A DNA stretch of 64,000 bases from a bacterium (GCA_965216315.1 CBDCFN010000016.1:2176001-2240000); one strand, 5' to 3'; counted from the first letter of the stretch, positions 1 through 25,515 are shown. Program-made: numbers and translations. Notes: generated by a model not told the origin, from the letters alone.

Positions 1-1177
1 TGACATTACCAGGAAGCGTGGCGCTGACCGGATTCGTTCCGCCCATCTGCATCATGCCGGTGAGCAGTGTGTCCGCCGTAAAGGTCTGGTGGGCACCGCT
101 GTTAACCGCCACGGCATTGTTAATGCCGGTACTCATGGCCGACTCAAAAAAGCTCGTCCACTGGGCCTGATTCCAGCCCATGTCACCGCCGATGCCATTG
201 TTCATAAAGGTCTGGGCCATCAGCGGCGCGACTTGTTGCGCAAATCCCTCGGCGGAATAACAGGAATCCGCGAGATGAGCCAACTCCGCCGGCAGGGGTA
301 TATCCACGCCTGCGACGTTGGCCATCAAGACCGGACTCGTCATGGCGGAAAAACCAGCGGCTTGCGGCTCCGTCACCGGAGAAGAATCGCCGGCAGACAC
401 AGGCTCACTGGCCCCATCACTCACCGGTGCCGTTTCACCCTGGGGAGCCACCGCGCCTTGGCCTTGAGCCGCTAAAAACTCAGCGAACATGCGGCCGGCT
501 TGCTCGGGCGAAATACCGCCGCCGCCACCGTTGCCATCACCATCGCCATTCCCGCCACCGCGGCGGTTTTTCAGCCAATTTTTGAAGCTATGGTAAACAT
601 CCGGACCGACGGTAAAGGCCGCCAGTAGGAAGAAAAATTCTACGAGGTGGTCTTGGGTCGGGGGACGCAGACGTTCCATCGATGAGGCGAGCGCATCACA
701 TTGTTGATCCGACAGACCCGTCGGACATTCGCCATCGAACCAATGCAGAGGATTGTACCAGCTTTCACCGCCCCGAATCGTGCGAATGATCCCTTCACGA
801 ATCGCCGGTTGATCGGCCTTGATGCACAGGGTCCCGGCACGGCCACCGAAGGCGGATAGGGAGACACGATCTTGAGACATGTTAGGAAAACCGCGGACGG
901 CGTCGGCGGCATCATGGTCGAAAGTCGCCCCATGTGGACCGGAATCGGCAATCTCGTAGTAGCCCTGTCGCGAGTCGCAAGAACGTAAAGTTTCGCCGAT
1001 ATAATCGGCCCAGGGCTGGTCGCCGCTGGTGATAGTCGGGTCGGGAACGATCACGCCACCTTGCGTAAAAACCGCTCCGGGTTTATCTTCCGTGGCTCCA
1101 TAGGCCGTTCCCGGATTGGCTCGACACAGGCCGTTATGCCCCTCTAGATTTGACGCACCATAAAGATCGCATCCCAT
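1..1177 (-). CDS. Family A Cys-rich single-pass membrane protein, copy 1 (3' end runs off the window; missing from the ORF track)
   Basis: Manual translation from ATG at 1177 (RBS AAGGAG upstream): MGCDLYGASNLEGHNGLCRANPGTAYG...GYYEIADSGP...FPNMSQDR...EFFFLLAAFTVGPDVYHSFKNWLKNRRGGG. Clear paralogue of 1434..2756. Confidence 0.9.
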   Translation of the reverse strand, partial: MGCDLYGASNLEGHNGLCRANPGTAYGATEDKPGAVFTQGGVIVPDPTITSGDQPWADYIGETLRSCDSRQGYYEIADSGPHGATFDHDAADAVRGFPNMSQDRVSLSAFGGRAGTLCIKADQPAIREGIIRTIRGGESWYNPLHWFDGECPTGLSDQQCDALASSMERLRPPTQDHLVEFFFLLAAFTVGPDVYHSFKNWLKNRRGGGNGDGDGNGGGGGISPEQAGRMFAEFLAAQGQGAVAPQGETAPVSDGASEPVSAGDSSPVTEPQAAGFSAMTSPVLMANVAGVDIPLPAELAHLADSCYSAEGFAQQVAPLMAQTFMNNGIGGDMGWNQAQWTSFFESAMSTGINNAVAVNSGAHQTFTADTLLTGMMQMGGTNPVSATLPGNV

Positions 1178-1299
1178 ATACAACTCCTTACGCAACGGGC
1201 GCCCAAACGCCCATGTTATACACTACACGCTGTCTAAACTAGGTGCTGAGTTCCATGCACAGCACACGACACTTTTAAACACACGCTTACTCATAGGCA

Positions 1300-1326
1300 T
1301 TATCGGTGTCGATTTGCGAAAGTTGC
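1300..1326 (-). promoter_or_regulatory. sigma-28-like bipartite promoter motif
   Basis: Minus strand GCAACTTT-CGCAAATCGAC-ACCGATAA upstream of family A copy 1; overlapped by inverted repeat TTGCGAA-N12-TTCGCAA (1314-1339). Confidence 0.75.
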
Positions 1327-1433
1327 GGTAAATTCGCAAGGGGCTGACGAAAATTAGAAAAACCGTCCCAAAATTGGCAAGAAACAGGCTCTAGGGGGCC
1401 CTCTCAACCCCCCAGGCCTGCAATTAGAAGTGC

Positions 1434-2756
1434 TTATAAGGGCACGGGAACCGGCGCCATTCGCGGCACCACGACGGGAGCCACGCGCGGCGTAACAACC
1501 GGCGCGACGCGCGGAACCACCACCGGGGCCGGAACCGCCGTTGGGGCGGGCGTCGGGATGGCCGCCGGATTCGCGGCCCGGACCCGACCGGGAACGGTCG
1601 CGGCGACCGAACTGACCCCGCCGAGCTGCATCATCCCGTCAAAGAGCGTATCGGCGGTCCGCGTCGTGCCGGCGGGTGCCGCCGTGGAAGCAGCCGCGTT
1701 ATTGATGCCGCTCGTCAGCGCGGATTGAAAGACACGGGTCCACTGGGCCTGATTCCAGCCCAGCTCACGACCAATGCCATTACGCATGGCCAATTGGGCA
1801 AAGATCGGTGCCGCTGCCTGGGCAAATCCCTCAGGAGTGTAAGAAACATCGGCCAAATGAGCCATCTCGGCAGGCAAGGCCATTTCAACCCCAGCCACTC
1901 GCGCCGTCACGCCGGAAACCGCCGTAAAAGTCGCAACCGGTGCCTCGGAAGCTGGGGTCTCCTCACCGGCCGGGGCCGCTTCGCCGGCTCCCTCCGCTTG
2001 GGGCGCGGCGTCAGCTTGGCCGGGAGCCGCGTGCATCGCAGCCAGGGCGCGGCCGAGCTGTTCCGGTGTCATCTCGATGTTGCCACCGCCACCGCCACTG
2101 CCTCCATTACCATCGCCATTGCCGCCATTGCGGCGGCTTTGGATCCATCTTTTCAGGGCGTGGTAGACATCCGGGCCAATCGTGAAGGCCGCGATCAAGA
2201 AGAAAAACTCGGTGAGATGGTCCTGCTGCGGAGGACGCAAATGTTCCATCGACGTCGCCAAGGCCTCACATTGTTGGTCGGAGAGTCCCGTCGGACATTC
2301 CCCGACAAACCAGCGCGCCGGTGAATAGTTCACATACCAGGGCCGGTTCCCGCGAATATGGCGGATGATTCCCTCACGTACCGCTGGTTGATCGGCGCGG
2401 AGACACAGGGTTCCGGGTCGGCCCGCGTGAGCGGAGAAAGACGCCCGATCTTGCGACATATTGGGGAAAGTTCTGACCACATCGGCAGAGGTATGATTGA
2501 AGGTCGCACCGTTGGGTCCTGAATCGGCAATTTCATAGTACCCTTGACGTGCGTCACAGGATCTCAGGCTCTCGCCGTGAAAGGCGCTCCACGGCTGGTC
2601 GTTAGCAGGCCGGGTCGGATCGGGAACGATGACCCCAGCTTGCGTCATAACGGCGCCGGGGCGACCGTCTCTAGGTCCGTAAGCCGTGCCCGGATTAGCG
2701 CGGCACAGACCGGGCTGCCCTTCCAAATTAGACGCACCATACAGATCGCAAGTCAT
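1434..2756 (-). CDS. Family A protein, copy 2
   Basis: 440 aa: conserved ~180-aa N-domain with 6 Cys, hydrophobic FFFLIAAFTIGPDVY followed by basic residues, Gly linker, Pro/Val-rich tail; RBS AAGGAG. Confidence 0.9.
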   Translation of the reverse strand: MTCDLYGASNLEGQPGLCRANPGTAYGPRDGRPGAVMTQAGVIVPDPTRPANDQPWSAFHGESLRSCDARQGYYEIADSGPNGATFNHTSADVVRTFPNMSQDRASFSAHAGRPGTLCLRADQPAVREGIIRHIRGNRPWYVNYSPARWFVGECPTGLSDQQCEALATSMEHLRPPQQDHLTEFFFLIAAFTIGPDVYHALKRWIQSRRNGGNGDGNGGSGGGGGNIEMTPEQLGRALAAMHAAPGQADAAPQAEGAGEAAPAGEETPASEAPVATFTAVSGVTARVAGVEMALPAEMAHLADVSYTPEGFAQAAAPIFAQLAMRNGIGRELGWNQAQWTRVFQSALTSGINNAAASTAAPAGTTRTADTLFDGMMQLGGVSSVAATVPGRVRAANPAAIPTPAPTAVPAPVVVPRVAPVVTPRVAPVVVPRMAPVPVPL

Positions 2757-2900
2757 AATCGGCTCCTTTTGCCGTCAACGAGGTCGTTGACTAAAAGGAG
2801 GCACTGCCTGGCTTAGGCCTGTTTGATTGATTTGGATAAGGTTTACCCGCGTCATAGTGTGCCTCCGGTTACGGAAGTCCACCATAACAACCCAATGTGG

Positions 2901-2927
2901 TTATCGGCATGGCCTTGCGAAAGTTGC
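2901..2927 (-). promoter_or_regulatory. sigma-28-like bipartite promoter motif
   Basis: GCAACTTT-CGCAAGGCCAT-GCCGATAA (perfect FliA -10); inverted repeat TTGCGAA-N12-TTCGCAA at 2915-2940. Confidence 0.8.
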
Positions 2928-2967
2928 GGGGAATTCGCAAAAGGCTGACGAAAATTGGGAACCGTTG

Positions 2968-3100: not shown

Positions 3101-4090
3101 TTAAGGTATCGCCGGCACCAAACTCGGCTTGACGACCGGCACCGGCGCGCCCTTCGGGACAACCGGCGGCGCTGGAACGACCGGAACGGGAGGCGTCGCG
3201 ACAGGGGCTTTAGCCCCCTTGGCACCGGGCGTTGCTTTCGCTACGGGACTCTTGCTTCCATTCTGCAATTCAGCGTCAACGAAGCTATCAGCGGTAAATG
3301 GCTGGGCACTCGCGGGCTGCGCATTGGGTTGGACCTCCGGCTGAGGCGCGGTCTCGCCCTTGGCAGCCGCCGCCGCAGCCATCACCTGCGCCAACTGTTC
3401 CGGCGTCATTTCGATGTTCCCGTTCCCCCCGCCGGGACCACCGCCCTTGTCTCCCCCACCCCGATTTTTCCACCAATTCTTAAGTCCATGATAGATATCG
3501 GGACCGATGGTGAAAGCCGCGATCAAAAAGAAGAACTCCATCAGATGATTTTGCTGCGGGGGGCGCAGGGTTGACATCGAGTGGGCCAGGGCGTGGCATT
3601 GTTGATCATCAAGATCCTCGGGGCAGTCCCCGTCAAACCACGCCAAGGGGTTCCACCAGTCCTCCTTGCCCCAGAGCTTATAGATCAGGCCCTCGCGAAT
3701 CGCCGGTTGATCCGCCTTGACGCAGAGGGTCCCCGGCTTGCCACCAAAGGCGGATAAGGACACGCGGTCCTGCGACATGTTAGGAAATTTCCGGATCACA
3801 TCGGCCGACTTATGATCAAAGGTCGCGCCGTTGGGACCTGAGTCGGCAATCTCGTAGTAACCCGACCTAGAATCACAAGAACGCAGGCTCTCACCGTGAT
3901 AGGCCTCCCAGGGCTGGTCGTTCTTCGCCCGCGTCGGATCCGGGACAATGGTCCCGCTCTGGGTCATCACCGCGCCGGGTATCTTTTTGTTGTCGGAATT
4001 CTTTTGTTCGCCGTAGGCCGTACCGGGATTGGCGCGGCAGAGTCCTGGCTGTCCGGGAAGATCGGAAGCACCGTAGAGATCACATCCCAT
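3101..4090 (-). CDS. Family A protein, copy 3
   Basis: 329 aa starting MGCDLYGAS; same conserved blocks and TM; short Pro/Val tail. Confidence 0.9.
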   Translation of the reverse strand: MGCDLYGASDLPGQPGLCRANPGTAYGEQKNSDNKKIPGAVMTQSGTIVPDPTRAKNDQPWEAYHGESLRSCDSRSGYYEIADSGPNGATFDHKSADVIRKFPNMSQDRVSLSAFGGKPGTLCVKADQPAIREGLIYKLWGKEDWWNPLAWFDGDCPEDLDDQQCHALAHSMSTLRPPQQNHLMEFFFLIAAFTIGPDIYHGLKNWWKNRGGGDKGGGPGGGNGNIEMTPEQLAQVMAAAAAAKGETAPQPEVQPNAQPASAQPFTADSFVDAELQNGSKSPVAKATPGAKGAKAPVATPPVPVVPAPPVVPKGAPVPVVKPSLVPAIP

Positions 4091-4160: not shown

Positions 4161-4187
4161 TTATCGGTCCGGGTTTGCGAAAGTTGC
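4161..4187 (-). promoter_or_regulatory. sigma-28-like bipartite promoter motif
   Basis: GCAACTTT-CGCAAACCCGG-ACCGATAA upstream of copy 3. Confidence 0.75.
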
Positions 4188-4318: not shown

Positions 4319-5422
4319 CTACGGAACCACCGGCACCGGAGCCGCCCGCGGCACGAAGACCGGAGCCCTGACTGCAAAGGGTCGAGGGGCTGCAACGATG
4401 GGGACAGGCGGAGCGATTGTGGTCGGCTTGACTCCTGCCTTGCCGGCAGGCAGGCCCTTCGCGACCGGGACCTGACCCGCTGTCGTGGAACGGATGGCCT
4501 TGGCGCCACCATACTGCAACATCCCATGGATCAGACTATTGGCAACAAAGGTCTTGGGCTCGGTTGCCTGGGGCGCCTTGGCGGGTTCACCTTGCGCGGC
4601 AGCCACTCCCGCTAAAATTTGGCCGAGCTGTTCAAACGTGATGCTGTCGCCGCCACCACCACCATTACCTTTGCCGTCGCCATCACCACCGTTACGTTTA
4701 CTCTGAATCCAGCGCTTTAGGGCATGGTAGACATCAGGGCCGATCGTAAAAGCCGCCAGCAGGAAAAAGAACTCCACGAAGTGGTTCTGGCTCGGCGGCC
4801 GCAGGTTTTCCATCGAAGTCGCGAGGGCCGTGCACTGCTTATCCGTCAGTCCTTTTGGGCACTCACCTGCATCCCCCATAAACAGGCGCAAGGGCGTATA
4901 ACGGACATACCAGGGCATATCCCCATTAATCTTGCGAATAATCCCCTCGCGTATCGACGGCTGATCGGCCTTGATACACAGCGTCCCGGCCCGGCCGGCA
5001 TGCGCGGAAAAGAACACGCGTCCCTGCGACATATTAGGGAATTTGCGGACGACGTTGGCCGAGTGCTTATTAAACGTCGCGCCTTTCGGACCGGAATCGG
5101 CAATTTCATAATAACCGCGGCGCGAATCGCACGACCACAGCTTCTCACCGAAAAATTTGCTCCAAGGTTGTTTATTGTGGGGAAGCTTGGGATCGGGGAC
5201 GATCGTCCCGGTTCCGGTAATGACAGCACCTGTGCGACCCTTTTTCGGTCCGTAGGCCGTTCCGGGATTGGCGCGACACAGGCCACTGGGCTTGCGGACA
5301 CGGGCCGCCTTATTCGGGGATGAAACGACTTTCCCGGTTGCGTCGAGATATTGACCTTTGCGGTTCACACGCGGAACCGTGCGCATGATCGGTGATGCAC
5401 CGTACAAATTACAACTTGCCAT
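4319..5422 (-). CDS. Family A protein, copy 4 (basic N-terminal insertion)
   Basis: 367 aa starting MASCNLYGAS, with a ~30-aa K/R-rich insert before GLCRANPGTAYG; RBS AAGGAG. Confidence 0.9.
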   Translation of the reverse strand: MASCNLYGASPIMRTVPRVNRKGQYLDATGKVVSSPNKAARVRKPSGLCRANPGTAYGPKKGRTGAVITGTGTIVPDPKLPHNKQPWSKFFGEKLWSCDSRRGYYEIADSGPKGATFNKHSANVVRKFPNMSQGRVFFSAHAGRAGTLCIKADQPSIREGIIRKINGDMPWYVRYTPLRLFMGDAGECPKGLTDKQCTALATSMENLRPPSQNHFVEFFFLLAAFTIGPDVYHALKRWIQSKRNGGDGDGKGNGGGGGDSITFEQLGQILAGVAAAQGEPAKAPQATEPKTFVANSLIHGMLQYGGAKAIRSTTAGQVPVAKGLPAGKAGVKPTTIAPPVPIVAAPRPFAVRAPVFVPRAAPVPVVP

Positions 5423-5482: not shown

Positions 5483-5509
5483 TTATCGGTTCGCATCTGC
5501 GAATGTTGC
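5483..5509 (-). promoter_or_regulatory. sigma-28-like bipartite promoter motif
   Basis: GCAACATT-CGCAGATGCGA-ACCGATAA upstream of copy 4. Confidence 0.7.
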
Positions 5510-5584: not shown

Positions 5585-8305
5585 CTATTGATACAGAATG
5601 TTCTGCATCTCTTGAAAACGCGCCTCATCAAAAACAAAATTATTTCCATGAGATCCTCCACGCAAGAACGTCGACGAGGATGAGGATGAATGGCAACCGC
5701 TAGGACAGGGATTAGAATTCGGCTGCGGACCCGTCATGTCGAAGCGAATGTCTTTAAAGTCGTCATCTTTGGATTTGAAATCCTTGCTGACCGTGAAATC
5801 GATCGATTCGACGAATTTCTCCGGACCTTTGGCCTTGAGGACCTGGCGCAGCTGCTCCAAAAAGAGAATTTGGGCGCGGCGGATTTCGCCCTCCGGCCGC
5901 GGCCGCCCAACCTGTTTGCCGCCGGCAGCGGTAACGCGCGCGCCGCGAAAGAACTTCCGCTGCTCTTCCGTGTACTCCGGATTGCCCGCAGCATTAAACT
6001 TAGGCGCGAGCTTCATCATCACGTGGCCGGTGTGTGTCACGGTCGGGTCCAGCGTAATCATTTGCGGCTCACCGGTTTGAGGATCGATTTTCTTTTCACC
6101 CGTCTCAGGGTCCACAGCCGGCAAAGTATCCCGCATGATGAGCGTGTAATTCTTGGCCTGTTCATTCCAAGCAGCCTCAATCTTGGTCGTTAACTCCGTA
6201 CCTTCCTTGCGCATCATCAGATGGATGACGCCGTCCTTCGTCCGTTTGATTTCGATGTGAATCCCGTCATTAAAAGCGACTTCACCGTAACTATCGTAAA
6301 GAATGGAGAGGGGAAATTTGCGAACACCGGCACTCGTCTTAATAACGACTTCATCCTGATCGACGCCGCTCGGTGACTTGGTCTGATGGATTTCGACGGA
6401 AACACCGAGTCCTACTTCAGCCATGCGATGGTAGAGATCGGCATATTTTTTGCGAATAAAGGTCGTCAGGTGTGTTTCTAAATCACGGCGGCCTTTAAAC
6501 ATTTTTTCAAGGTAGTTGGAAACCGCTTGGATATCCGGCTGCTTATTTGCATAGAGCGCCCGTATGTCGGCACCCCGTTGCACATACGCCTTGTCATCGG
6601 TCGCCGCGATCAAATCAATGACCTTAAAGGTCCCACTCATATCGTTCTGTTTAACGAAGTCCTGGAGAATGGATTCGACGGTATTGTAATCGATGAAATA
6701 ATCTTTACCGGTAATCGCCCGCGTCTCGGCATCCGCTTGGCGCATCCCTTCCCAACTCGCGGGAAAGGCGACGTTCTTAACGAACTGATTCGGAAAGGTG
6801 ATCCCCGCGCCTTCCAGCCATTGATTGTAGACCTTGGATATCTTGGCATTAGCCTCACTGCCGCCGGTCACCAGACCTTTGACACAAATCGACCACTTCT
6901 TGATGCTGGGAAACCACGAGTCATTGATGCTCTTGCCGTAGACCTCATTAAACAACGCCTCATTCAGCGAGTAATCGGCATTGCGAAACGCCGGCGACCA
7001 AATTTGTTCGCCGATGCCCAGGCCCAATTCAAAAGACAGCGGGACGCCATAAGCCAACGACGCGCCTTCAATCAACAAACCACCGCCGCGCGCCAGCCAA
7101 CCGTAGCTTGAATTGCGCATGATTGACGTGCCCAGCGATCGATAGCCGAGCCGTTGGCCCTGCGTCTTGGCGAGCGTCGACGCCGCGGCCGCGCGTACCG
7201 CATAACCTTTAAACAACTTCGAATACAGGGCCGCCGGCAAGCCGGCACTGATCAGTAAGTTACCCGTACCGCCCTTCTTGAGCGTTTCGATCCCTCCCCA
7301 ACCGCCTCCGATCCAGTGGGTCAATTCACTCGTAATCCCGGACACAACGACGAGTTCACCGCCGACCTGCTTGAATTGCGTCCAACTAAACGCCGGAATC
7401 TCCGGTGCACTCGGCATCAACATGCGGGGAAAGGTGTTGTTGTAAGTATGACGCAGCAAGGAGTATTCGGCACCCCCGAGCGCGATATTTGAAAACACGC
7501 GCTGATAAGGGTCATCGATACCGAGGGCCTGGGATTGTTGATCAACCGCCCAGTAGGCCGCCGCATAAGGGACAGCAACCCCTAAACCCTTAAAAATAAC
7601 TCGCGGGGTATTATGGTAAAAATTTTGCACTAGCTTCGGGGACAATGCAGCCACACCCCCAGCGAGCACGGTCGAACTCGACATGCCAAAAGAATTGGTA
7701 TCGAGCTTCGGTCGTTGCTTGATTTTCTGACCATACTCGTGCGGATGGACGACGGCATAGACTGGCGTCGGTCCGCCGGATGCGACTGGACGCGTGTAGA
7801 ACTCTTCATTCGCACCGGGCTTATAGTCGGGATACTCATGCGAGGGCGCGCGATGGAGCAAGACGATCGGGCGCCCGCCCTTGACGTACTTGACGCTCAT
7901 GAACCAACCGACCTTGTATTCCTGCGGCGGGCGCAATGAAGCCGGCATTTCATCATAAATGGAATTGACGGGAATGCGCTTGTCATCGGTAAACGTCTTG
8001 CGCAAGTACTGATACTCGTCGATCTCTTCCGCGGCGAGAAAATTGGCACCGAAGTTGAGGACGCGATCCGATTTTTGATCGATATCATAAACGATGGGCA
8101 GGCCGGATGACGTATCCGTTTCGTTTTTCCTGCTAAAATCCGCCGCAAAAAAGACCGGCTCGCTCGTCGGCCCAAAAATCAGTGCGGGGGGAACCGCCAC
8201 GCCCTGTCCTTCCTTGATAGGAGGCGTTACCATCATCTCCCCATGGTCCGCATAGAATTGCGGCTTGGTGTAGCGGCAGACGGATATTGTCGGATCACAA
8301 GTCAT
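5585..8305 (-). CDS. Large hypothetical protein with several Gly/Ala-rich hydrophobic segments
   Basis: 906-aa ORF starting MTCDPTISVC; RBS GGAAGG; 27 bp downstream of family A copy 5, so probably co-transcribed. No family recognised. Confidence 0.8.
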   Translation of the reverse strand: MTCDPTISVCRYTKPQFYADHGEMMVTPPIKEGQGVAVPPALIFGPTSEPVFFAADFSRKNETDTSSGLPIVYDIDQKSDRVLNFGANFLAAEEIDEYQYLRKTFTDDKRIPVNSIYDEMPASLRPPQEYKVGWFMSVKYVKGGRPIVLLHRAPSHEYPDYKPGANEEFYTRPVASGGPTPVYAVVHPHEYGQKIKQRPKLDTNSFGMSSSTVLAGGVAALSPKLVQNFYHNTPRVIFKGLGVAVPYAAAYWAVDQQSQALGIDDPYQRVFSNIALGGAEYSLLRHTYNNTFPRMLMPSAPEIPAFSWTQFKQVGGELVVVSGITSELTHWIGGGWGGIETLKKGGTGNLLISAGLPAALYSKLFKGYAVRAAAASTLAKTQGQRLGYRSLGTSIMRNSSYGWLARGGGLLIEGASLAYGVPLSFELGLGIGEQIWSPAFRNADYSLNEALFNEVYGKSINDSWFPSIKKWSICVKGLVTGGSEANAKISKVYNQWLEGAGITFPNQFVKNVAFPASWEGMRQADAETRAITGKDYFIDYNTVESILQDFVKQNDMSGTFKVIDLIAATDDKAYVQRGADIRALYANKQPDIQAVSNYLEKMFKGRRDLETHLTTFIRKKYADLYHRMAEVGLGVSVEIHQTKSPSGVDQDEVVIKTSAGVRKFPLSILYDSYGEVAFNDGIHIEIKRTKDGVIHLMMRKEGTELTTKIEAAWNEQAKNYTLIMRDTLPAVDPETGEKKIDPQTGEPQMITLDPTVTHTGHVMMKLAPKFNAAGNPEYTEEQRKFFRGARVTAAGGKQVGRPRPEGEIRRAQILFLEQLRQVLKAKGPEKFVESIDFTVSKDFKSKDDDFKDIRFDMTGPQPNSNPCPSGCHSSSSSSTFLRGGSHGNNFVFDEARFQEMQNILYQ

Positions 8306-9650: not shown

Positions 9651-9677
9651 TTATCGGTATCGGAAGGTGAAAGTTGC
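9651..9677 (-). promoter_or_regulatory. sigma-28-like bipartite promoter motif
   Basis: GCAACTTT-CACCTTCCGAT-ACCGATAA. Confidence 0.75.
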
Positions 9678-11327: not shown

Positions 11328-11354
11328 TTATCGGCAGGAATTTGCGGAAGTTTC
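11328..11354 (-). promoter_or_regulatory. sigma-28-like bipartite promoter motif (variant -35)
   Basis: GAAACTTC-CGCAAATTCCT-GCCGATAA. Confidence 0.7.
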
Positions 11355-13874: not shown

Positions 13875-13901
13875 TTATCGCCGACTTTACCGAAAGGTTT
13901 C
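13875..13901 (-). promoter_or_regulatory. sigma-28-like bipartite promoter motif (degenerate)
   Basis: GAAACCTT-TCGGTAAAGTC-GGCGATAA, same spacing, upstream of the start at 13831. Confidence 0.55.
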
Positions 13902-17384: not shown

Positions 17385-17411
17385 TTATCGGAAAGAATTC
17401 GCCGATGTTGC
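17385..17411 (-). promoter_or_regulatory. sigma-28-like bipartite promoter motif
   Basis: GCAACATC-GGCGAATTCTT-TCCGATAA. Confidence 0.7.
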
Positions 17412-17562: not shown

Positions 17563-20500
17563 CTAGGAAGGTAAACTCGAACGCATCAGGCCGACGAACG
17601 CAGGGTCAATATCACTGGCACCGCCCCGCAGCAACGGCTGCCGTTCCCATAAGTTGATAAGGTGTTCAACGGCCCGACGCCGTGCCGCTTCATCGCGCGC
17701 CGCCCAGTCATCAAGTTCATCGGCAAGAATGGCCTCGACCTTGGCTTCACGGGTCAGCGGTGGTTTTACAAATAGACTGACGAAGGCTTCCGTAATCTCC
17801 GGCGCCCCATCACGCAAGAGTTCATGGCGTTCCCACATCGCAATAATACGCTGGACCTCCACTTGTTGCTGGGGGGCATCCAGTGAATCCCAGTTAGGGG
17901 ACACGGTCGCAAGAATCGCGGCGACCTTGTCTTCACGGGTCGGTTCCGGTGCGGACTCCGGCTCTGGCGGCGCAATGACGGCGCGGACAAAGTCCTCCGT
18001 AATCTCCGTCACACTCACATCCTGTCGCTGCGCCCACTGATCGAGAACTTGCGCCACAAGACTTTGCTGCGCCTGAGCGTCCTGCTCGTCCCAATCCGGT
18101 GCCACCTCGGCAAGAAATTGGGCGACCTTTTCTTCAGAGCTCGGCTCCGGCGGCTTCACAAAGAGACGCACGAAAGCTTCGGTAATCTCCGTCGCTCCAT
18201 CGCGTAACATTTCGTGGCGCGCCCACATTTCAATAATGCCGTGAATCTCACGTTGCTGGGCGGCACTGTCGTATGAATCCCAGTCGGGAGAAACCACGGA
18301 AAGAATCTGCGCCACTCTTTCTTCGCGGCTGATGCGCGGCTCTTGACCCTTGATCATAAAATGCGCTTCGGGATGCTGCGTTAAATACAGCTCCGTCATG
18401 CTGCGCACAAAGTCGTCGTTGATCTCCGTCGCTCCCGCGCGCAAGAGCGGAATCTTTTCCCATTTATTCAGGATGTAGTCACTCAAGACCTGGTCCTTAT
18501 CCTCTTGAGGTTGATAGTTCTCCAACAACTCGTAAAGCGCGCGATCGACAGTAAAATGTTGAAAATGTTGCGCATGCTCGGTGACGAGAACCACTCGCGA
18601 TCCGGGACCACTCTGGGGCGCACTCAACGGGCTGTCGCCGTAGGCTTGATCCCAATCCTGAAGCGCCAGATCACTGGCCAACAGGGCCTGATAGGAGGGC
18701 ATTTCCGTGAGCGCCTTGACCACGCGCATCGCACTACCGATGCGGTGGCTCTCTTCGAGCGTCAATATTTCGCTGACCCCAATGTCGGATTGCTGATCGG
18801 GATGGACTCTTTCCTTGGCGGCCAATAGATCATTCATCGCCTCTAAGAGACGGGCGCGCATTTCGTTCCCTTCAGGGAGGAAATAGTACACGTTATGAAA
18901 CTGATCGTGCTTGTCTTGAAAAAGCCGGCGAATCACGCGTCCACGCGGTGGCGGTTGCGTCGCACCTGATGGCGGCAACGGCGGAGGCTCCGGTGGACGA
19001 ATTTCATTAACAAGTGGCAGCGGTTCGGCCTCGCCGTCGTCAACCGCGGCAACATCCGGCTCCGATGAAACGATATCGTCATCATCGACACCCAACAACT
19101 CGACGTCATCAACATTGGCATATTCGTCATCATCCGCGTCAAACGCGGCGATCCCCACTTGGACCGCCATATGGGCGTGAAAATCCGATCGCAAGCCCGC
19201 GGGATGAGCCACCGGATAGGTCCTGAGATCGACTTTGCGGGTACGGATCCTAAAATAAGCCCTTAAATACGCCTCGGGAAGTCCCTCTTGGGGCGACGCA
19301 TCAAGATCGACCCCCTCTTGCGCCCAGAACTGTGCCTTCACAACATGGTCGAGATAACCGTAGATCTGCACGGCCGCCGTCAGCTCACGCGGATGATGGA
19401 CCAACGTGCGGACGGCTTCGGAATCATGTTGACTGATAAATAAGAGCAAGGGGAGCAGTTCCAACACGCGGTCGCTCTGCTCCATCACGAATTGACCGGA
19501 ATCATCGTGATCGGCCAACGTTTCCCAGGTCGTAAAAAATAAACGTAAATAAGCCAGGGGCAATTCCGCGCCGCGTTTTCCCTCGATCGTCCAGAAGGCC
19601 GCACGCTGCTGTTGCGTCATGCGTTCCCACGCACGAATCGCCGCCTCACGAATGATGTTCTGCTTGGCCTCTTCCTTATCCTGATAGGCCACCATGGGCT
19701 CGGATTGATGCGCATCCGTCGGTAATAACGCCGTAATGTAGTGATGCACCCCTTGACTGCGAAGGGTCCGCAGCTGCTGCAAGCGCGACCGAATCGATTC
19801 TTCAAAGTTCTCACGATCGACCAAACGATCATCGTGGATGGACTTGGGATCCAACTCATAAGCAATCAAGAGATCGAGGTCTTGATACGCCGCCAAGGCA
19901 TCTTCGAGGAGTTTCTTTTGTTCCCCTAAATTATTGGCTTCGATCGTCGCGGTGAGGTCTTGGATAGCCCCCTGAAGCCGGGTCTCACGGATCCGGCGAA
20001 TTTGCGTCTCGCGTTCCGGCCCTGCCGAGCTGCCACTCCAGAAATAACCGAGCATGACATCGGAACCGAGCTCCGGATCGACGGGCCGCTTGCGCGGCAT
20101 GGCTGAATGCTGCTGCGGCATGCCCGTGGGATCCAACGGATAATCCGGCGCGGATTCAAAGGTATCGGGCGCCACCGTTTCCAGACCCAACAAGGCACTA
20201 CCCGTATAGCGCAAGAGCTTGTTCCCCATCACGGAAATGACATCCTGGGACTCAAGCTTGAGGTAGCGTTCACTCGAAACCTTGAGCGGCTTGCCATCAC
20301 GAATCACAGTCGTCCCAAAATCCGATTCATTATCAATGAGCCAGTAGCTGTCGTCGGGAAGAATCCGCACTTCGGCCTGAAGATCAGATACCAAATCATG
20401 AACGGCTTTTTTCTCGGGGTTGATCCGCCAATGGCCGTCCTTGACCTTGCGACCGATTCCAAACAGGTGTTGGACCGGTCTTTTTTCCAGGTCGTGAATC

Positions 20501-20937
20501 GGCAGGCGTACGGCGGTCGCTTGGGGGGCCGGCGTCGGCTCCTCCTGTTGGGCCTTACGGGCTAAAAACCAATTGCGAATCTGGCGGCCGAAGAGAATGG
20601 CCGTCCCGACAACCGCAACCGCAACACCAATACCGACGGACTTGGCTTCGGGAGAGCAACCCGTCATCATCATCGCACTGGCGACGAGAGGAATGAATTC
20701 CGCCCGCGAGGGAGTCCGCGCGCGTTCCGGTGTCCGGACGAGTAAATGCTGTGCCGGGCTGGCGACCGGCGCTGACAGTGCCGTATCAGGAGCCGGAGGC
20801 GCAGTGGTTAATTCGGTATTAAGGGGAAGTCCCTGAGTCGCGGGCGTCGACGTGGACGTCGAGGCGAGCACGCTCGAACCCATCCCTTGGGAGAGACTCA
20901 ATAAATTCATGCTCGTTCCGCCGGCTAGTAAATTCAT
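17563..20937 (-). CDS. TM + degenerate FHA domain + five tandem helical modules
   Basis: 1124 aa (alternative start 20910); Ser/Thr-rich N-terminus, TM VGIGVAVAVVGTAILFG, FHA-like GIGR...WLIDNESDFGT, acidic/Pro linker, 5 repeats of W..H.LLRDGA.EITEAFV. Confidence 0.8.
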   Translation of the reverse strand: MNLLAGGTSMNLLSLSQGMGSSVLASTSTSTPATQGLPLNTELTTAPPAPDTALSAPVASPAQHLLVRTPERARTPSRAEFIPLVASAMMMTGCSPEAKSVGIGVAVAVVGTAILFGRQIRNWFLARKAQQEEPTPAPQATAVRLPIHDLEKRPVQHLFGIGRKVKDGHWRINPEKKAVHDLVSDLQAEVRILPDDSYWLIDNESDFGTTVIRDGKPLKVSSERYLKLESQDVISVMGNKLLRYTGSALLGLETVAPDTFESAPDYPLDPTGMPQQHSAMPRKRPVDPELGSDVMLGYFWSGSSAGPERETQIRRIRETRLQGAIQDLTATIEANNLGEQKKLLEDALAAYQDLDLLIAYELDPKSIHDDRLVDRENFEESIRSRLQQLRTLRSQGVHHYITALLPTDAHQSEPMVAYQDKEEAKQNIIREAAIRAWERMTQQQRAAFWTIEGKRGAELPLAYLRLFFTTWETLADHDDSGQFVMEQSDRVLELLPLLLFISQHDSEAVRTLVHHPRELTAAVQIYGYLDHVVKAQFWAQEGVDLDASPQEGLPEAYLRAYFRIRTRKVDLRTYPVAHPAGLRSDFHAHMAVQVGIAAFDADDDEYANVDDVELLGVDDDDIVSSEPDVAAVDDGEAEPLPLVNEIRPPEPPPLPPSGATQPPPRGRVIRRLFQDKHDQFHNVYYFLPEGNEMRARLLEAMNDLLAAKERVHPDQQSDIGVSEILTLEESHRIGSAMRVVKALTEMPSYQALLASDLALQDWDQAYGDSPLSAPQSGPGSRVVLVTEHAQHFQHFTVDRALYELLENYQPQEDKDQVLSDYILNKWEKIPLLRAGATEINDDFVRSMTELYLTQHPEAHFMIKGQEPRISREERVAQILSVVSPDWDSYDSAAQQREIHGIIEMWARHEMLRDGATEITEAFVRLFVKPPEPSSEEKVAQFLAEVAPDWDEQDAQAQQSLVAQVLDQWAQRQDVSVTEITEDFVRAVIAPPEPESAPEPTREDKVAAILATVSPNWDSLDAPQQQVEVQRIIAMWERHELLRDGAPEITEAFVSLFVKPPLTREAKVEAILADELDDWAARDEAARRRAVEHLINLWERQPLLRGGASDIDPAFVGLMRSSLPS

Positions 20938-21022: not shown

Positions 21023-21049
21023 GTATCGGCACAAGATTGCGAAAGTTGC
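21023..21049 (-). promoter_or_regulatory. sigma-28-like bipartite promoter motif
   Basis: GCAACTTT-CGCAATCTTGT-GCCGATAC. Confidence 0.75.
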
Positions 21050-21157: not shown

Positions 21158-23242
21158 CTAGCGGCCTCTGCGGAGGCGATCGCGACGATCACGCGCCCGG
21201 TCGGTATCCAGATGTTCAAGTCCGGAGAGACCGTGGCCGCTGCTCGCGACGTGCGTGGCAATCTCAGTCCGCATCGCTTCGCTGATCCGGCGATGAATTT
21301 CCGCTTCACGACGGTCCGTGTTCCAATCAGCATGGTCGCGTTCCACTTGGCTGCGCGCCTGCGTCTCGAACGCACTAAAGAGGGGACGAAGCTCTTGAAT
21401 CGCGGAGAGGCGCGCCTCTGCCGGCAAAGCTCCATAACCGGGTAATTGGGAACGAAGATGCAGTTCGATCGCGGCATCGGTTCCACTGGAACCCTGGAGT
21501 GCCGCACGATCCCGCAAGAGACCGTCTAACTGCGCATCCGTCCAACCGGCTCCGCGCAGCGAAGTCAGTTCCGCCGCATCAAAACGATCGGCGTAGGCAT
21601 CAGCTGGAGGCGGTGTCGCGCCCGCGGGTGGATTATTCGCCGGTGGTGGTGTATTCCCTGCCGGCGGTGGCGTCGAACCACCGGAGCCGTTGCCGCCGCT
21701 GCTTCTACCGCGTATCGGTGCATCGGCATTGCCGCGTCCGACCGCATCGCGGACCTGCTCAATAAGATTATTCACTTGGTCTGTATTCGGAGCCGAGGGG
21801 CGGTCTGACGTATTCGCGCTACGAACCGCCGCTTCAAAACTACTCCGGTCCTCGCTACTGAATTGACTGAGATCACGTCGATCCGACTTGAGCAGGGCGG
21901 CTTCCGCACGTCCCGCTTCACTATCGGCATAAACTTGCCGTAAGACATGATCCGTCGCCGCATCAATCATCCCGACTGGGGGAACACCGTCAACTTGACC
22001 TGTTGTCGGACGACCGGCGGCATCCCAACGGCGCATCGCTTCTTGAGCAATGACGCTGTCGTAAATTCTCCGGCCCTCACCATCCTTTAAATTCGGATAG
22101 CGCATGCGGACAAAACTCTGGATGTGCGATTCACGCACCCGGTTTCTGGTGGCTTCCTGAGTCGCGGCGCGATTCTGGAGAAAGCGCCTACCAAGATAGA
22201 TACCCCCTAAACCGAGGACAACCGCTCCCGGGATGGCAATATTAGAATTGTCACTAAACCACGAGGAAATGCGCTGCCATACAGTCGGCTCCGGCGTTGG
22301 TGCCGGTGGCCGGGCATTGACCGTGATCTCCCGGGTCTGGATCGTCCCATCACCGTCACGGACGGAAACGGTATGCGTCCCGACACCCAGCGTCGGAACA
22401 TAGGTTCCGGTGCCGGTCAGGGCTTGAACACGGGTTTCACCGACGTACACGGCGGTTCCTTCCGGCCAAGCGGACAACCCGGCATCGCTCGGACGTATCG
22501 TCAAACCGGTCGGCGTCTCCCCTTCCGTCATCGTCAGGGCCGTAAGATTCCGCGTCGTACGCGGCGGCACGCCTTGGTTCTGATCCAAGAATACAGCGAT
22601 TCCTAAGAGCGCGTGCATATAACGGATCAGCTTTTCACCCTTGGCCTGTTGGGTCGCACGACCGCGGAAGGCGCGGGTCACAAACTCAATAAAGTCACGA
22701 CGGGAAATCACGTCGGCGTTGCCATCGGGATTGAAGCGATCGCCGACATCCGGATTCAGGCCGCGGAAAATATTGATGACGTTGAGGGCATCATAAAGCT
22801 CGTAGTTGGTCACCTGTTGTGGGGTCAGCGTATTCAAGTAGGCCGTAACCGCTTCTTCACCACCATCGGTCCGACGGCGGCCGACTTCGGCCCAGGTCGC
22901 CTGTGCTGCCGTCGCATTGTACCCAAGCTGACTGGTCAGACAGGTCAACAGCGCCTGGTCGTTCGCATAGAGTATTCCGACGTTAAAACCGCTGCGTTCT
23001 GAGGTGTTTCCTCGGCGGTCTGCCGTTGCCGAAAGATAACGGGTAAATGAATCGAAGCTCCCTGAAGGAACCGTGTAGCGTCCCGATAAATCCGGATCGA
23101 GATTGCTGATCTGGTTCGGCGGCATTTGGTTGGCACCACCGTGCTGGGGTGCGACACCAAGTCGCTGATAGATTGCCGCAAGGCCACGCGCCTCACTTAA
23201 AATTGCTGGATTAACTTGATTCGGTCTACATTCATTAACCAT
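21158..23242 (-). CDS. Single-pass membrane protein: EF-hand-like and Ig-like N-part, C-terminal LPAEARL module, Arg-rich tail
   Basis: 694 aa; NPDGNADVISRRDF, GTHTVSVRDGDG, TM IAIPGAVVLGLGGIYLGRRF; ends LRRGR. Confidence 0.8.
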   Translation of the reverse strand: MVNECRPNQVNPAILSEARGLAAIYQRLGVAPQHGGANQMPPNQISNLDPDLSGRYTVPSGSFDSFTRYLSATADRRGNTSERSGFNVGILYANDQALLTCLTSQLGYNATAAQATWAEVGRRRTDGGEEAVTAYLNTLTPQQVTNYELYDALNVINIFRGLNPDVGDRFNPDGNADVISRRDFIEFVTRAFRGRATQQAKGEKLIRYMHALLGIAVFLDQNQGVPPRTTRNLTALTMTEGETPTGLTIRPSDAGLSAWPEGTAVYVGETRVQALTGTGTYVPTLGVGTHTVSVRDGDGTIQTREITVNARPPAPTPEPTVWQRISSWFSDNSNIAIPGAVVLGLGGIYLGRRFLQNRAATQEATRNRVRESHIQSFVRMRYPNLKDGEGRRIYDSVIAQEAMRRWDAAGRPTTGQVDGVPPVGMIDAATDHVLRQVYADSEAGRAEAALLKSDRRDLSQFSSEDRSSFEAAVRSANTSDRPSAPNTDQVNNLIEQVRDAVGRGNADAPIRGRSSGGNGSGGSTPPPAGNTPPPANNPPAGATPPPADAYADRFDAAELTSLRGAGWTDAQLDGLLRDRAALQGSSGTDAAIELHLRSQLPGYGALPAEARLSAIQELRPLFSAFETQARSQVERDHADWNTDRREAEIHRRISEAMRTEIATHVASSGHGLSGLEHLDTDRARDRRDRLRRGR

Positions 23243-23317
23243 TTTACTAACCCCTTATGGCTGTAATTAAGATTCTTCTCTCTCCGTAAAATATACTGTC
23301 CACTTCCACCTTAGTTG

Positions 23318-23346
23318 TGCGGCGCCGGCTTTGAACCGGCGCCGCA
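23318..23346. terminator. Strong intergenic hairpin (attenuator or mRNA stabiliser)
   Basis: TGCGGCGCCGG-CTTTGAA-CCGGCGCCGCA right after the stop at 23360; no clear U-tract. Confidence 0.5.
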
Positions 23347-23359
23347 TCACGATAAGGAA

Positions 23360-25381
23360 TTAGAAGTTAAGGCCACCGCCGCGGTTTCCACCACCGCCGC
23401 CGCCTTGGCGACGGATGCTAACCGTACCGGCGGTCACCGAGGATCCAACCAGAGTGGTCCCACTCAACGGCTGAATCGTAACGCTGAAGTCTTGACGACG
23501 TCCGGCGCGTCCACCCGTATTCCAGGTCTTCGGGCGTCCGGTCAGCGTGATGTTATTCACACCGGCCGTCAGCGTCACATCTTCCGTGTGAGTTCCGACG
23601 GTGATCCGTGCAGGACCGGCGATGTCGCTCGTTACGCGAAGCGTAATCGAATCATTCGCGTAGTAACTGGCTGTCGAAGTCACGCTCGCCGAGCTCAGCG
23701 TCGCATGTGCGGGTGCTGCCGGAGTCATGGCAACTGTCACGTTCCCTAAGTTCAATGAACCGAGCGTCACAAAGACGTTTGCCGAGTTACCGGCGGTCAA
23801 GCCCAATGCGGTAACCTGAGACTTGGTCAGGTTCACATCAAGAGATCCGCCGACCGGAATATTATTCGGGACCTCAATCGTCGCAATCACGCGACCATTG
23901 CTGGTCTTAACCTGAATCCGCGAACCGGCCGCAATCTCCGTCCGGGCCACCACGCGCCCGATCCGGCCAATAATCGTGTCATCCGTCGCCGCATCGCGTA
24001 CAGCCTCATCGGTAACGGTGAGATTATGGGGTTCCCAGGTCTGCGGATTCTGCGGCGTCTCTGAGCGATTGATCTCGATGACAGCCGTCCAGTAAACGGT
24101 TCCACTCGAATCACGGACTTCAACCGTGTTGCGATCTTCCGTCAACAAACCTTCATCAACGACCAGCGGATTGTTACCCGACGGGCGGATATTGGTATCA
24201 CGTCCGTTAACGCGAACCGTGGACCCAGGTCTCCATCCGCCTTCAGGCGCAGTGAAGGAACCTTCGGCACCCGGTGCGACACGCGTCGTTCCAGCATCAT
24301 GGGGTCCAACCTCCCGGGTCCGCTCATCCGCAACCGGAGGTGTCACCCCGCCCGTGTCGCTGGAACCACCGAAGTACCAGGTCAAACCACCCATGACGCG
24401 GTGATCAGCTTGTCCAAAACTACTGCTCCCGCGGTTGGAGGGATTAAACCAAGTGTATCCCGGTGAATAAGCAAGATTTAACTGAACGGCATGATTCTGA
24501 CCGGCAATGATATCATAGCCGAGGCCGAGAATTCCGCGCAGGTTCATGACGGTACCACCACCAGCATCAATGGAATTACCAACCGCTGGATTCCACAGTC
24601 CACAAAGGCCCGTGTTGTAGCTCGAACCGGCGTCATTACCGCGGCCTAATTCGCCTTCAGTCCCGCTGGGTGTCGTCTCGGTGCAGTTGCCCATCGAGGA
24701 CAGGCTACCGACGCCAAACTCACCACCGGCAAAAAGGCTGAGGTTTCTCGCCGCCGTCGCATGAAAAGGATAAAAGCGCGCGAGGGCTCCCAAGTGCCAC
24801 ATAAAACTGGAAGCACTCGAATCAAAGCTCTCGCCACCGGGAGTCAGGCCGGTACCAGCTAAATGCTGTCCGCCGATGCCGGTGTAGAAGTTTCCTGCAA
24901 TCCAGGGAGTATTGGGACTAAAAACGTCTAGGTGAAACTGGAGGTCACCGCCGCCGCCGCTATGAGCAACATCGCCAGAACCGAATTGACCAAAACCGCG
25001 GAGACCGAGACCATAGCGAACCCGCGTGCTGCGATCCGTCGAAGTTGGATTGGGATCTGTGGTCGGGTTGGGATCCGTTGTCGGATTGGGATCCGTCGTC
25101 GGATTGGGATCCGTCGTCGCGTCTGCGACGATACGTGAATCAGCGGTATCGCCGTTCAGTTGGGCATAAGTAAATGTCTGACCATTGACCACGACAGTAT
25201 AATCGGTCGGGTTAACCGTTGTCCCGCCAGTACTCGCAGCCGTTGCCGTATCCCTGATTCGAGCTGCCAATTGCCGCGCTTCTGCAACCGTTAATACATT
25301 TGCATCATTATTGCGTTCAGTAATTGCAACTGATACAGGATCAGCTCCGCTCCGAACAACGCTATAGTTAGTATCTGCCAT
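23360..25381 (-). CDS. Outer-membrane beta-barrel-like domain + Ig-like domains, no signal peptide
   Basis: RBS AGGAGG before ATG 25381; amphipathic Gly/aromatic strands from RYGLGLRG to GGLTWYF; Thr/Val-rich beta-sandwich-like C-terminus. Confidence 0.7.
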   Translation of the reverse strand: MADTNYSVVRSGADPVSVAITERNNDANVLTVAEARQLAARIRDTATAASTGGTTVNPTDYTVVVNGQTFTYAQLNGDTADSRIVADATTDPNPTTDPNPTTDPNPTTDPNPTSTDRSTRVRYGLGLRGFGQFGSGDVAHSGGGGDLQFHLDVFSPNTPWIAGNFYTGIGGQHLAGTGLTPGGESFDSSASSFMWHLGALARFYPFHATAARNLSLFAGGEFGVGSLSSMGNCTETTPSGTEGELGRGNDAGSSYNTGLCGLWNPAVGNSIDAGGGTVMNLRGILGLGYDIIAGQNHAVQLNLAYSPGYTWFNPSNRGSSSFGQADHRVMGGLTWYFGGSSDTGGVTPPVADERTREVGPHDAGTTRVAPGAEGSFTAPEGGWRPGSTVRVNGRDTNIRPSGNNPLVVDEGLLTEDRNTVEVRDSSGTVYWTAVIEINRSETPQNPQTWEPHNLTVTDEAVRDAATDDTIIGRIGRVVARTEIAAGSRIQVKTSNGRVIATIEVPNNIPVGGSLDVNLTKSQVTALGLTAGNSANVFVTLGSLNLGNVTVAMTPAAPAHATLSSASVTSTASYYANDSITLRVTSDIAGPARITVGTHTEDVTLTAGVNNITLTGRPKTWNTGGRAGRRQDFSVTIQPLSGTTLVGSSVTAGTVSIRRQGGGGGGNRGGGLNF
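25043..25118 (-). repeat. 18-bp coding tandem repeat (TTDPNP x4)
   Basis: Encodes TTDPNPTTDPNPTTDPNPTTDPNPT. Confidence 0.9.
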
Positions 25382-25488
25382 GGTGGTCCTCCTAAAAGTC
25401 CTAGCTTATAAATTCCTCAAATAAATCCCTGTTGAAAAAGTCCTCGCACAGACACGAAAAAATATTCGTTTGCCTTGCACGTAGAAAC

Positions 25489-25515
25489 TTATCGGGTTCC
25501 CAAAAAAGAAGTTGC
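25489..25515 (-). promoter_or_regulatory. sigma-28-like bipartite promoter motif
   Basis: GCAACTTC-TTTTTTGGGAA-CCCGATAA upstream of 25381. Confidence 0.75.

Follow-up and report, generated by a model that had tools for sequence, protein, structure and literature searches.

The window examined here, a stretch of 64,000 nucleotides (G000:C16:2176001-2240000) from the genome of an uncultured bacterium (2.96 Mb in 16 contigs, 98.3% complete), carries in its bases 2-25381 a run of 13 open reading frames (ORFs), all of them on the minus strand and co-oriented, as a first-pass annotation had stated. That annotation took the run for a 25-kb island; the block of genes is real, but its extent had been underestimated, since nine further co-oriented ORFs without a Pfam family lie in the 20 kb to the left of the window (locus L008). 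The island extends 18.5 kb leftward beyond window base 1 and comprises in full 22 genes over 44 kb of the minus strand (C16:2157525-2201381), named U1-U9 to the left of the window and W1-W13 inside it. Sequence comparisons firmly support the island as a real, co-regulated and lineage-restricted gene set under a sigma-28-class promoter. The genes and promoter copies are listed below, where TM stands for a transmembrane segment, family A and family B for two families of island paralogs, and C-module for a C-terminal unit that several of the proteins share.

1..1177, minus strand: W1, family A; 443 residues in full, with its stop 137 nucleotides left of the window; likely start at the MGC Met at 1177
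1300..1326, minus strand: promoter of W1 (motif)
1434..2756, minus strand: W2, family A; Cys N-domain with six invariant Cys, one candidate TM, Gly-rich linker, Pro/Val/Arg tail
2901..2927, minus strand: promoter of W2 (motif)
3101..4090, minus strand: W3, family A by BLAST and alignment
4161..4187, minus strand: promoter of W3 (motif)
4319..5422, minus strand: W4, family A with an N-terminal insert, by BLAST and alignment
5483..5509, minus strand: promoter of W4 (motif)
5585..8305, minus strand: W5, divergent family B (matches the family B profile at 456 bits); lacks its own promoter, 27 nucleotides after W6
8333..9583, minus strand: W6, family A; likely start at the MGC Met at 9583 (Shine-Dalgarno sequence)
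9651..9677, minus strand: promoter of W6 and W5 (motif)
9731..10510, minus strand: W7; Cys hairpin, TM, C-module and Arg tail after an MPP start; overlaps the W8 end
10525..11304, minus strand: W8, paralog of W7; MPP start at 11304
11328..11354, minus strand: promoter of W8 and W7 (motif)
11393..13831, minus strand: W9; starts with MPP and has an FHA domain (residues 94-176), two C-modules and an Arg tail; without TM
13875..13901, minus strand: promoter of W9 (motif with the weakest -35)
13908..17303, minus strand: W10; MTPPP start, N-part of 394 residues with four Cys, candidate TM, AAA+ domain (496-630), C-module, Arg tail
17385..17411, minus strand: promoter of W10 (motif)
17563..20937, minus strand: W11; uncharged Ser/Thr/Leu-rich N-terminus, TM (98-116), weak FHA match, about five C-module-like repeats
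21023..21049, minus strand: promoter of W11 (motif)
21158..23242, minus strand: W12; 332-residue N-part followed by TM, C-module and Arg tail; lacks its own promoter
23360..25381, minus strand: W13, an orphan containing TDPNPT repeats, first in the island
25489..25515, minus strand: promoter of W13 and probably W12 (motif)

All-against-all BLAST searches and alignments of the island proteins defined three families (A, B and the C-module) and one singleton, W13, and bore out the earlier impression of proteins assembled from shuffled, shared parts. Family A has five copies (W1, W2, W3, W4 and W6), the N-domains of which are 67-74% identical and contain six invariant Cys; its members are built in the order Cys N-domain, candidate TM, Gly-rich linker, variable part and Pro/Val/Arg tail. 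Nine copies make up family B, namely U1, U2, U3, U5-U9 and the divergent W5. The C-module, LPAEARL ... PLLRDG ... followed by an Arg tail ending in GR, is carried by seven proteins (U4, W7, W8, W9, W10, W12, and W11 with its about five repeats). Genomic matches to the A, B and C-module profiles all fall within the island. The C-terminal parts vary among the tandem paralogs, and in Pfam searches the variable parts proved to be low-complexity sequence, not toxin domains.

The claim that none of the 13 window proteins belongs to a recognisable family stands for ten of them, which have no Pfam family at an E-value (E) of 0.01 or below, but not for W9 and W10. An FHA domain (PF00498) was recognised in W9 with 40.8 bits (cut-off 20.7, E 3.1e-10) and an AAA domain (PF00004) in W10 with 23.9 bits (cut-off 21.2); W11 has an FHA match of 20.2 bits, just below the cut-off of 20.7. 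In an NCBIfam scan, none of the 13 proteins reached a model cut-off. Among the cargo proposed by the first-pass annotation, the FHA and AAA domains were thus recovered, the label 'Clp-like' comes from one weak PHROG match of W10 (phrog_4871, ATP-dependent protease, E 6e-6), and the transglutaminase-like and beta-barrel parts gained no support from profile models at E of 1 or below. At this threshold Pfam gave no match to a transglutaminase or any other family in W9 residues 180-480, none to a beta-barrel or other family in W13 residues 115-345, and noise only over the eleven sub-regions searched. The only Cys of W9, C388, stands, as read by eye, in a G-x-C context with H-A-W and D-P downstream. 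Searches of PDB sequences with W9, W10 and W13 gave nothing below E 0.025; W10 had no match at E of 1 or below and all matches of W13 were at E of at least 0.05.

When searched against 5.8 billion proteins, family A found its own paralogs only. Its profile gave eight matches among 1.84 billion representatives: three of its own, one real relative (P0008, E 1.8e-22) and four long multi-stretch proteins. Among the 8000 candidates scored, the family B profile found the island's own U5 and one Logan protein (P0007), and the W10 alignment used as a query found two loci. Folds were modelled from shallow alignments, of 10 rows for the family A N-domain and 20 rows for family B (U5). The family A model (predicted local distance difference test, pLDDT, 76; predicted template modelling score, pTM, 0.64) predicts an alpha/beta domain followed by a long helix (180-209); its best Foldseek match has E 1.1, and its best VIA match, ThyX, has a Z of 4.8 over 78 aligned residues (root-mean-square deviation 3.7), which is below what unrelated models reach. 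The U5 model (pLDDT 65, pTM 0.45) predicts a disordered stretch (12-70), a small alpha/beta domain (71-142), a Gly-rich linker after it, hydrophobic helices at low confidence (184-390) and, with confidence, a helical C-domain (430-655), so that family B lacks a clean single-TM layout in this model, the best Foldseek match of which has E 0.38. As far as these models go, the missing fold matches do not show that the folds of A and B are new. Because they have only few metagenomic sequence relatives and no fold match, the two families are nevertheless, by sequence comparison, new protein families, whatever their export route.

Ten window genes are preceded by their own copy of the promoter motif GCAAC(T/A)T-N13-(G/C)CGATAA, which is exactly the number claimed before, and the island holds 17 copies in all. 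The window contains 11 matches against 0.03 expected, a number reached by 0 of 100 shuffled sequences; ten of them lie in 1-25515 and one more at 29941 on the plus strand. The sigma-28 -10 element, GCCGATAA, is present as (G/C)CGATA(A/C) in 17 of the 17 island copies. W5, W7 and W12 have no copy of their own and each follows or overlaps its upstream gene: W5 comes 27 nucleotides after W6, W7 overlaps W8, and W12 follows W13 with a GC-rich hairpin between them. No sigma-70-like match was found on the coding strand of 1-20000, and the sigma-70 scan gave no excess over shuffled sequence. The sigma-28 consensus of E. coli is GTTT-N12-CCGATAA, and the island promoter, read as CTTT-N12-CCGATAA, has the same spacing. 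Furthermore, its -10 equals that of the attack-phase FliA consensus of Bdellovibrio, TTAAG-N16-CCGATA, as given in passages of PMC3627812; the role of FliA as an attack-phase regulator in that organism, invoked by the first-pass annotation, is in print in the same passages. Judged by these features, the island motif is a sigma-28-class promoter.

Upstream of the -35 box, conservation among the family A promoters continues over about 40 more bases, TTTTCGTCAG..TTTGCGAATTT, at window positions 1327-1370, 2928-2970, 4188-4230, 5510-5550 and 9678-9720; among them is an inverted TTGCGAA/TTCGCAA pair that overlaps the -35 box, and the whole may be an operator or activator site. Weaker versions of these upstream bases precede W8, W10 and W11.

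A scan of the genome for secretion systems, as had been suggested, brought out one clear candidate route, a needle-less non-flagellar type III secretion system (T3SS) with a sigma gene inside its cluster. This cluster spans C16:~339-372 kb and encodes two FHA/YscD-like proteins, several TPR proteins, SctJ-like and FliG_C-like proteins, SctL, SctN, YscO-like (SctO-like), FliK-like and FliM/N-like (Q-like) proteins, FliO, SctV, SctR (above the cut-off of its subfamily model), SctS, SctT and an FHA-bearing sigma-54 activator, while SctU is encoded elsewhere in the genome; the T3SS export apparatus predicted from these genes is complete. The only FHIPEP gene of the genome passed the SctV equivalog TIGR01399 (806 versus 692) and failed FlhA (698 versus 772). 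No Secretin domain was found within C16:339-372 kb, and no recognisable needle gene or translocon in the cluster; the two secretin matches of the genome are located at 974 kb, beside a PilC-like gene, and at 16 kb. Flagellin, rod, VirB4, VirD4 and TssC gave 0 matches each in this 98.3%-complete genome. The only injection-type machinery that we firmly recognise in its sequence is thus the needle-less non-flagellar T3SS with its FliA-like sigma gene.

Two further points concern secretion in this genome. The secretin match at 16 kb is a lone ORF of 253 residues (C16:16617-17378; L052:10617-11378) with weak Secretin_N and Secretin matches, lying among housekeeping genes, and a search for a Tad/Kil cluster near it (C16:6-46 kb) met housekeeping genes only. 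A signal of the type IV secretion kind in the Arg-rich C-termini was considered and is unlikely because VirB4 and VirD4 are absent.

The sigma gene (C16:350511-351407) lies between the SctJ-like gene and SctL/SctN, and the best family of its product is TIGR02479 FliA_WhiG, at 133.5 bits; two other matches of the sigma search in the genome reached 107.8 and 67.2 bits. Two promoter copies (C16:360553 and 362888) also precede orphan genes where the T3SS cluster ends distally. The sigma factor that reads the island promoter is most likely this FliA/WhiG-like factor of the T3SS cluster, and the sigma-28 regulon of the first-pass annotation finds its counterparts in the class of the motif and in the presence of this factor. 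Small orphan ORFs flank the sigma gene on either side (L006:11407-11895, 162 residues, and L006:10010-10369, 119 residues), and one of them could be an anti-sigma factor of the FlgM kind. Where the cluster ends, beside SctT, an orphan of 717 residues is followed by four paralogous orphans of 491, 460, 624 and 601 residues, the four lying at L049:4938-12038 (C16:362938-370038). The 717-residue orphan and the first of the four carry the island's promoter, and the four share a conserved helical C-terminus (..Y.S.R.A..F.RD..), in which we see a resemblance to the pattern at the C-termini of needle or filament subunits of T3SS.

Applied to the whole genome, a weight matrix derived from the 17 copies in the island found 74 promoter sites outside the island at a score of at least 12, and 41 at a score of at least 15. 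Pfam was run on 20 of the 41 downstream ORFs (those of the higher-scoring sites with about 150 residues or more, the TSP3 gene of the window being excluded); 16 had no Pfam family and the other four were an Exo_endo_phos enzyme, a subtilase, a HAD hydrolase and an RtcB ligase. Many of the orphans have uncharged N-termini rich in Ser/Thr/Ala/Leu/Gln and 0-1 Cys in 300-900 residues. The sigma factor would thus drive a broad programme, of which the island is the largest block, and the promoter yields in this genome a candidate list made up of the 22 island genes and about 30 dispersed orphans. The RtcB RNA ligase (L027; C16:1284032-1285489, minus strand), with a promoter copy upstream, has an uncharged N-terminal extension of about 35 residues and stands among the Cys-poor orphans of the list.

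Regarding the origin of the island, its left flank beyond the U genes holds tolB and then tolQ/tolR, and its right flank three TSP3-repeat genes followed by housekeeping genes of the tricarboxylic acid cycle and of haem. The GC content at third codon positions (GC3) averages 0.636 in island genes versus 0.555 in the genome and 0.559 in the other promoter targets; it falls in the genome's top fifth for 19 of the 22 genes, most of them at the 80th-99th percentile. This composition and the tandem arrays of paralogs with variable C-terminal parts would suit a horizontally acquired island, whether mobile element, polymorphic toxin-immunity array, phage remnant or defence system. However, no tRNA was found at the island borders, the flanks showed neither an integrase nor any other Pfam family of mobile elements, and the 22 island proteins gave 0/22 matches to PADLOC models and 1/22 (W10) to PHROGs models, on which grounds a prophage, a defence island and an integrative element were rejected. 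Moreover, the promoter is common to dispersed chromosomal genes and the T3SS cluster, the gene order is kept in a genome of the same family, and the variable parts have no toxin domains. Acquisition is therefore highly improbable; the high GC3 of the island comes with no mobility marks and is not shared by the other promoter targets.

The relatives examined were 60 genomes (two of the same family, one of the same order and 57 of the same class), and counts out of 61 include the source genome, G000. An ortholog of the sigma factor is present in 61/61 genomes at 52-81% identity and FHIPEP in 60/61, whereas flagellin was found in only seven of the 60 relatives (53 being without it), and those seven have an extra, FlhA-like FHIPEP. 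By manual comparison of the tables, the sigma gene lies 10-18 kb from FHIPEP on the same contig in 22 of the 60. A mostly non-flagellated class thus keeps a non-flagellar T3SS together with a sigma-28-like factor. Family B recurs in 12/61 genomes; family A is confined to G000 with a narrow profile and reaches 5/61 with a broader one, to which G001 and G010, among the five, supplied rows; the C-module was found in 0/60 relatives. G001, G010, G002 and G050 have tandem family B genes with A-like genes alongside, the promoter motif on the coding strand in 4, 3, 2 and 1 copies, respectively, and recurring N-termini of the MC(D/N)(P/S)T..C type. The A-like genes of relatives encode N-termini of the form MSG..C..F..T...LC and tails ending in Pro/Val/Arg. 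An ortholog of W10 is present in G001 (34% identity over 1067 columns), and in the same-family genome the order C-type protein, AAA+, A, then B copies is retained. The sequencing runs listed for this DNA are four DNA runs of one study and no RNA run.

The N-termini of the window proteins were evaluated with a Kyte-Doolittle hydropathy heuristic (12-residue mean within the first ~40 residues). By hydropathy, none of W1-W13 has a Sec-like N-terminus, that is a basic n-region with an h-region, the best 12-residue mean being at most 1.22, and no signal peptide is hidden upstream of an ATG/GTG/TTG start because the window ORFs are already maximal; the reported absence of Sec signal peptides thus held for 13 of the 13. 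Shine-Dalgarno sequences favour internal Mets as the starts of W1 (where AAGGAG sits 7 nucleotides upstream of the ATG at 1177), W6, W7 and W8, and the start of W8 was placed at the MPP at 11304, its first ATG lying directly against the -10 element. With corrected starts, all five family A proteins begin with M-(G/T/AS)-C, W7, W8 and W9 with MPP, and W10 with MTPPP. A Cys is found within the first 10 residues of 12/22 island ORFs compared to 186/2014 background ORFs, and of 15/22 after start correction, which agrees with the early Cys and MPP starts described previously; this count amounts to about four families because paralogs are not independent. In the first 25 residues, K/R is at 0.069 in the island versus 0.122 in the background and Pro at 0.084 versus 0.047, while Ser+Thr is equal.

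Were the island proteins effectors for a eukaryotic host, the Cys clusters (MGC, MC, MTC) could be S-acylated and the Arg tails could be targeting signals. The enrichment of early Cys (12/22 versus 9% background) and the MGC starts of three family A proteins after start correction are consistent with this, and so are several family B N-termini with an odd number (three) of clustered Cys, for which lipidation or metal binding fits better than disulfides. However, Tyr occupies position 6 after MGC, where the myristoylation consensus has Ser/Thr, other paralogs start with MTC or MASC, there is no sign of a eukaryotic host, and no needle, translocon or secretin for injection was found. We consider such host effectors very unlikely, and the delivery into a prey or host membrane envisaged by the first-pass annotation is not supported by the present evidence.

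The earlier statement that most proteins have one TM is right as to number, a candidate TM being present in ten window proteins, but the candidates of 7/10 are moderately hydrophobic only (19-residue mean 1.16-1.29). In W1, W2 and W6 their positions were read from the sequence, the top hydropathy segment there being the tail. Across 11 single-TM island proteins, 2-4 K/R follow the TM versus 0-1 before it. The C-side of the TM holds two Cys (W1 C312 and U4 C146) in about 3,500 residues versus about 41 predicted from the genome frequency of 1.17%, with 0 in the 717 residues of W10 and 0 in about 1,000 of W11; in family B, 2-4 Cys fall within the first ~30 residues, with few beyond them. FHA, AAA+ and C-module all lie on the C-side of the TM. 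From the Cys and K/R pattern we infer an N-out, C-in layout, or an avoidance of Cys because the proteins travel unfolded.

For the island as a whole we favour, tentatively and at somewhat less than an even chance, a late module of membrane-targeted proteins that are exported or inserted through the needle-less T3SS. The cluster sigma would switch the island on when the export apparatus stands complete, in the manner of flagellar class 3 genes, and the signal-less products would leave the cytoplasm or enter the membrane N-terminus first via the T3SS export gate. Family B, with its N-terminal Cys cluster, disordered stretch, Gly/Ala-rich hydrophobic helices and helical C-domain, may provide membrane-inserting, translocator-like or lytic components. 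Family A and C-module proteins would be single-pass, with the Cys-bearing N-part outside and the C-part (FHA, AAA+, LPAEARL/PLLRDG module, Arg tail) in the cytoplasm, docking to a common partner. Export or insertion is suggested because no Sec signal was seen though the Cys pattern puts the N-parts outside the cytoplasm, because Cys is avoided elsewhere in the proteins and family B is translocator-like, and because the cluster sigma of flagellar systems controls late substrates. An unlikely but more specific form of the proposal has the needle-less T3SS as a dedicated route of export and insertion for signal-less N-out single-pass proteins and glycine-rich proteins that insert into membranes, with the short N-terminal Cys cluster (M-x(0-3)-C ... 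C) serving for recognition, anchoring or locking and with a sigma-28-like checkpoint encoded in the cluster, as in the control of flagellar class 3. If true, this would add a third function of the T3SS export gate to those in flagella and injectisomes, and the island proteins would be the first named substrates of the needleless type of system called T3SS*.

Several observations weigh against export through the T3SS. The K/R bias after the TM and the asymmetry of Cys fit a resident N-out/C-in membrane protein equally well. We know of no T3SS signal that consists of N-terminal Cys clusters, and no chaperone gene lies within the island, which is itself 1.8 Mb from the T3SS cluster. The cluster sigma scored below the FliA_WhiG cut-off (133.5 versus 189.6), the -35 box GCAAC(T/A)T differs from the TAAA type and from the TTAAG of Bdellovibrio, and the ranking of island sites on top by the weight matrix is circular because the matrix was trained on island copies. 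In the search for a Tad/Kil partner, one T2SSF protein (PilC-like, beside the large secretin) was found only, TadA and Flp not having been searched. In addition, the promoter precedes genes for lipoprotein-like Sec N-termini (C16:566720, 1737916 and 273867), the subtilase and a TSP3-repeat protein; it would therefore serve a broad programme and not T3SS cargo specifically, and co-regulation is no proof of export.

Some of these observations are readily accommodated by a resident inner-membrane receptor-adaptor or adhesion complex that is merely co-regulated and in the biogenesis of which the T3SS has no part, an alternative already named in the first-pass annotation and one that fits the topology signals about as well as export does. 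Here the A and C proteins would be reverse signal-anchors inserted via Sec/YidC, with Cys ectodomains that sense or bind a surface, while on the cytoplasmic side FHA, AAA+, C-module and the Pro/Val/Arg tails would together make a phospho-dependent signalling scaffold under a global, stage-specific sigma factor. Besides the K/R counts on either side of the TM and the location of nearly all Cys on the N-side, this arrangement would place FHA and AAA+ in the cytoplasm that these domains need, and Ser/Thr-phosphate signalling is present, since FHA proteins, a PP2C phosphatase and the FHA sigma-54 activator are found in or around the T3SS cluster. That the promoter also drives Sec proteins is equally in line with it. 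Nevertheless, N-parts of about 180 (family A), 332 (W12) and 394 (W10) residues would have to cross without a signal peptide, which reverse signal-anchor proteins of bacteria do not usually do; a clean single-TM layout is missing in family B; and the near absence of Cys in about 3,500 cytoplasmic-side residues is unexpected for ordinary cytoplasmic domains. A precedent for such a broad regulon is provided by Bdellovibrio, where FliA controls two-thirds of the attack-phase promoters that were mapped, among them promoters for surface proteins and proteases, according to passages of PMC3627812. Overall, a resident complex, the main rival to export, accounts well for the FHA, AAA+ and docking modules and has a substantial chance of being correct, though we would sooner expect it to be wrong.

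Export through the T3SS can be compared with known systems. Hydrophobic T3SS translocators (SctE/SctB, e.g. YopB/IpaB) and membrane effectors delivered by T3SS, such as Tir and chlamydial Inc proteins, likewise have no Sec signal and moderately hydrophobic helices, belong to multi-gene families and have helical or coiled-coil C-terminal parts. Unlike for translocators, there is neither a sequence or fold match nor an adjacent class II chaperone gene here, and an N-terminal Cys cluster is, to our knowledge, not a feature of these families. A complex prediction of a TPR protein of the T3SS cluster (147 residues) with family B residues 1-150 gave a score of 0.02, no verdict either way. In Chlamydia, sigma-28 is kept in a non-flagellated lineage with a non-flagellar T3SS and drives late stage-specific genes; by contrast, the present bacterium belongs to another phylum and the targets are a large clustered island of membrane proteins.

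The FliA regulons of flagellar class 3 and of the Bdellovibrio attack phase resemble the island in the -10 CCGATAA, the spacing, the location of the sigma gene among T3SS genes and the scattered late genes with their own promoters; the Bdellovibrio targets are, in passages of PMC3627812, often uncharacterised and non-flagellar. They differ in that the present genome has no flagellin or rod genes, a -35 of GCAACTT and a sigma factor under the FliA_WhiG cut-off. The needleless T3SS* of Myxococcus xanthus, as described in parts of PMC12075869, is likewise non-flagellar and combines an export apparatus with a sorting platform; its cluster lacks genes for a secretin, a needle or a translocon and encodes FHA and TPR proteins, and its effectors are not known. 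According to the same parts, it works with the Tad (tight adherence; Kil) pilus and is needed for prey lysis; unlike in Myxococcus, no Tad/Kil partner was detected here (one T2SSF protein, with TadA and Flp not searched). In the genome studied here, and we state this of this genome only, the cluster contains a dedicated sigma-28-like factor. On the export cargo of the needle-less T3SS* in predatory bacteria, the 2025 Myxococcus paper still writes of 'potential T3SS effectors' (PMC12075869), and the present case suggests where to look in Myxococcus, namely at a cluster-linked sigma factor and its promoter.

Other features were observed in and beside the island. The gap between W13 and W12 (window 23243-23359) contains, directly after the W13 stop, a hairpin with a perfect 10-bp GC-only stem and a 6-nucleotide loop; no T-run follows it, and it may be an attenuator or an RNA-stabilising hairpin. 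Family A genes are likewise trailed by G/C-rich hairpins, and a terminator scan gave no excess over shuffled sequence. The TSP3-repeat proteins to the right of the island are encoded at 25890-29756, 30007-32403 and 32430-33326, the largest having 13 repeats. The first begins with a Sec-like N-terminus, and basic residues come after a hydrophobic stretch at its C-terminal end; the second gene is preceded by the sigma-28-class promoter copy at window 29941-29967 on the plus strand.

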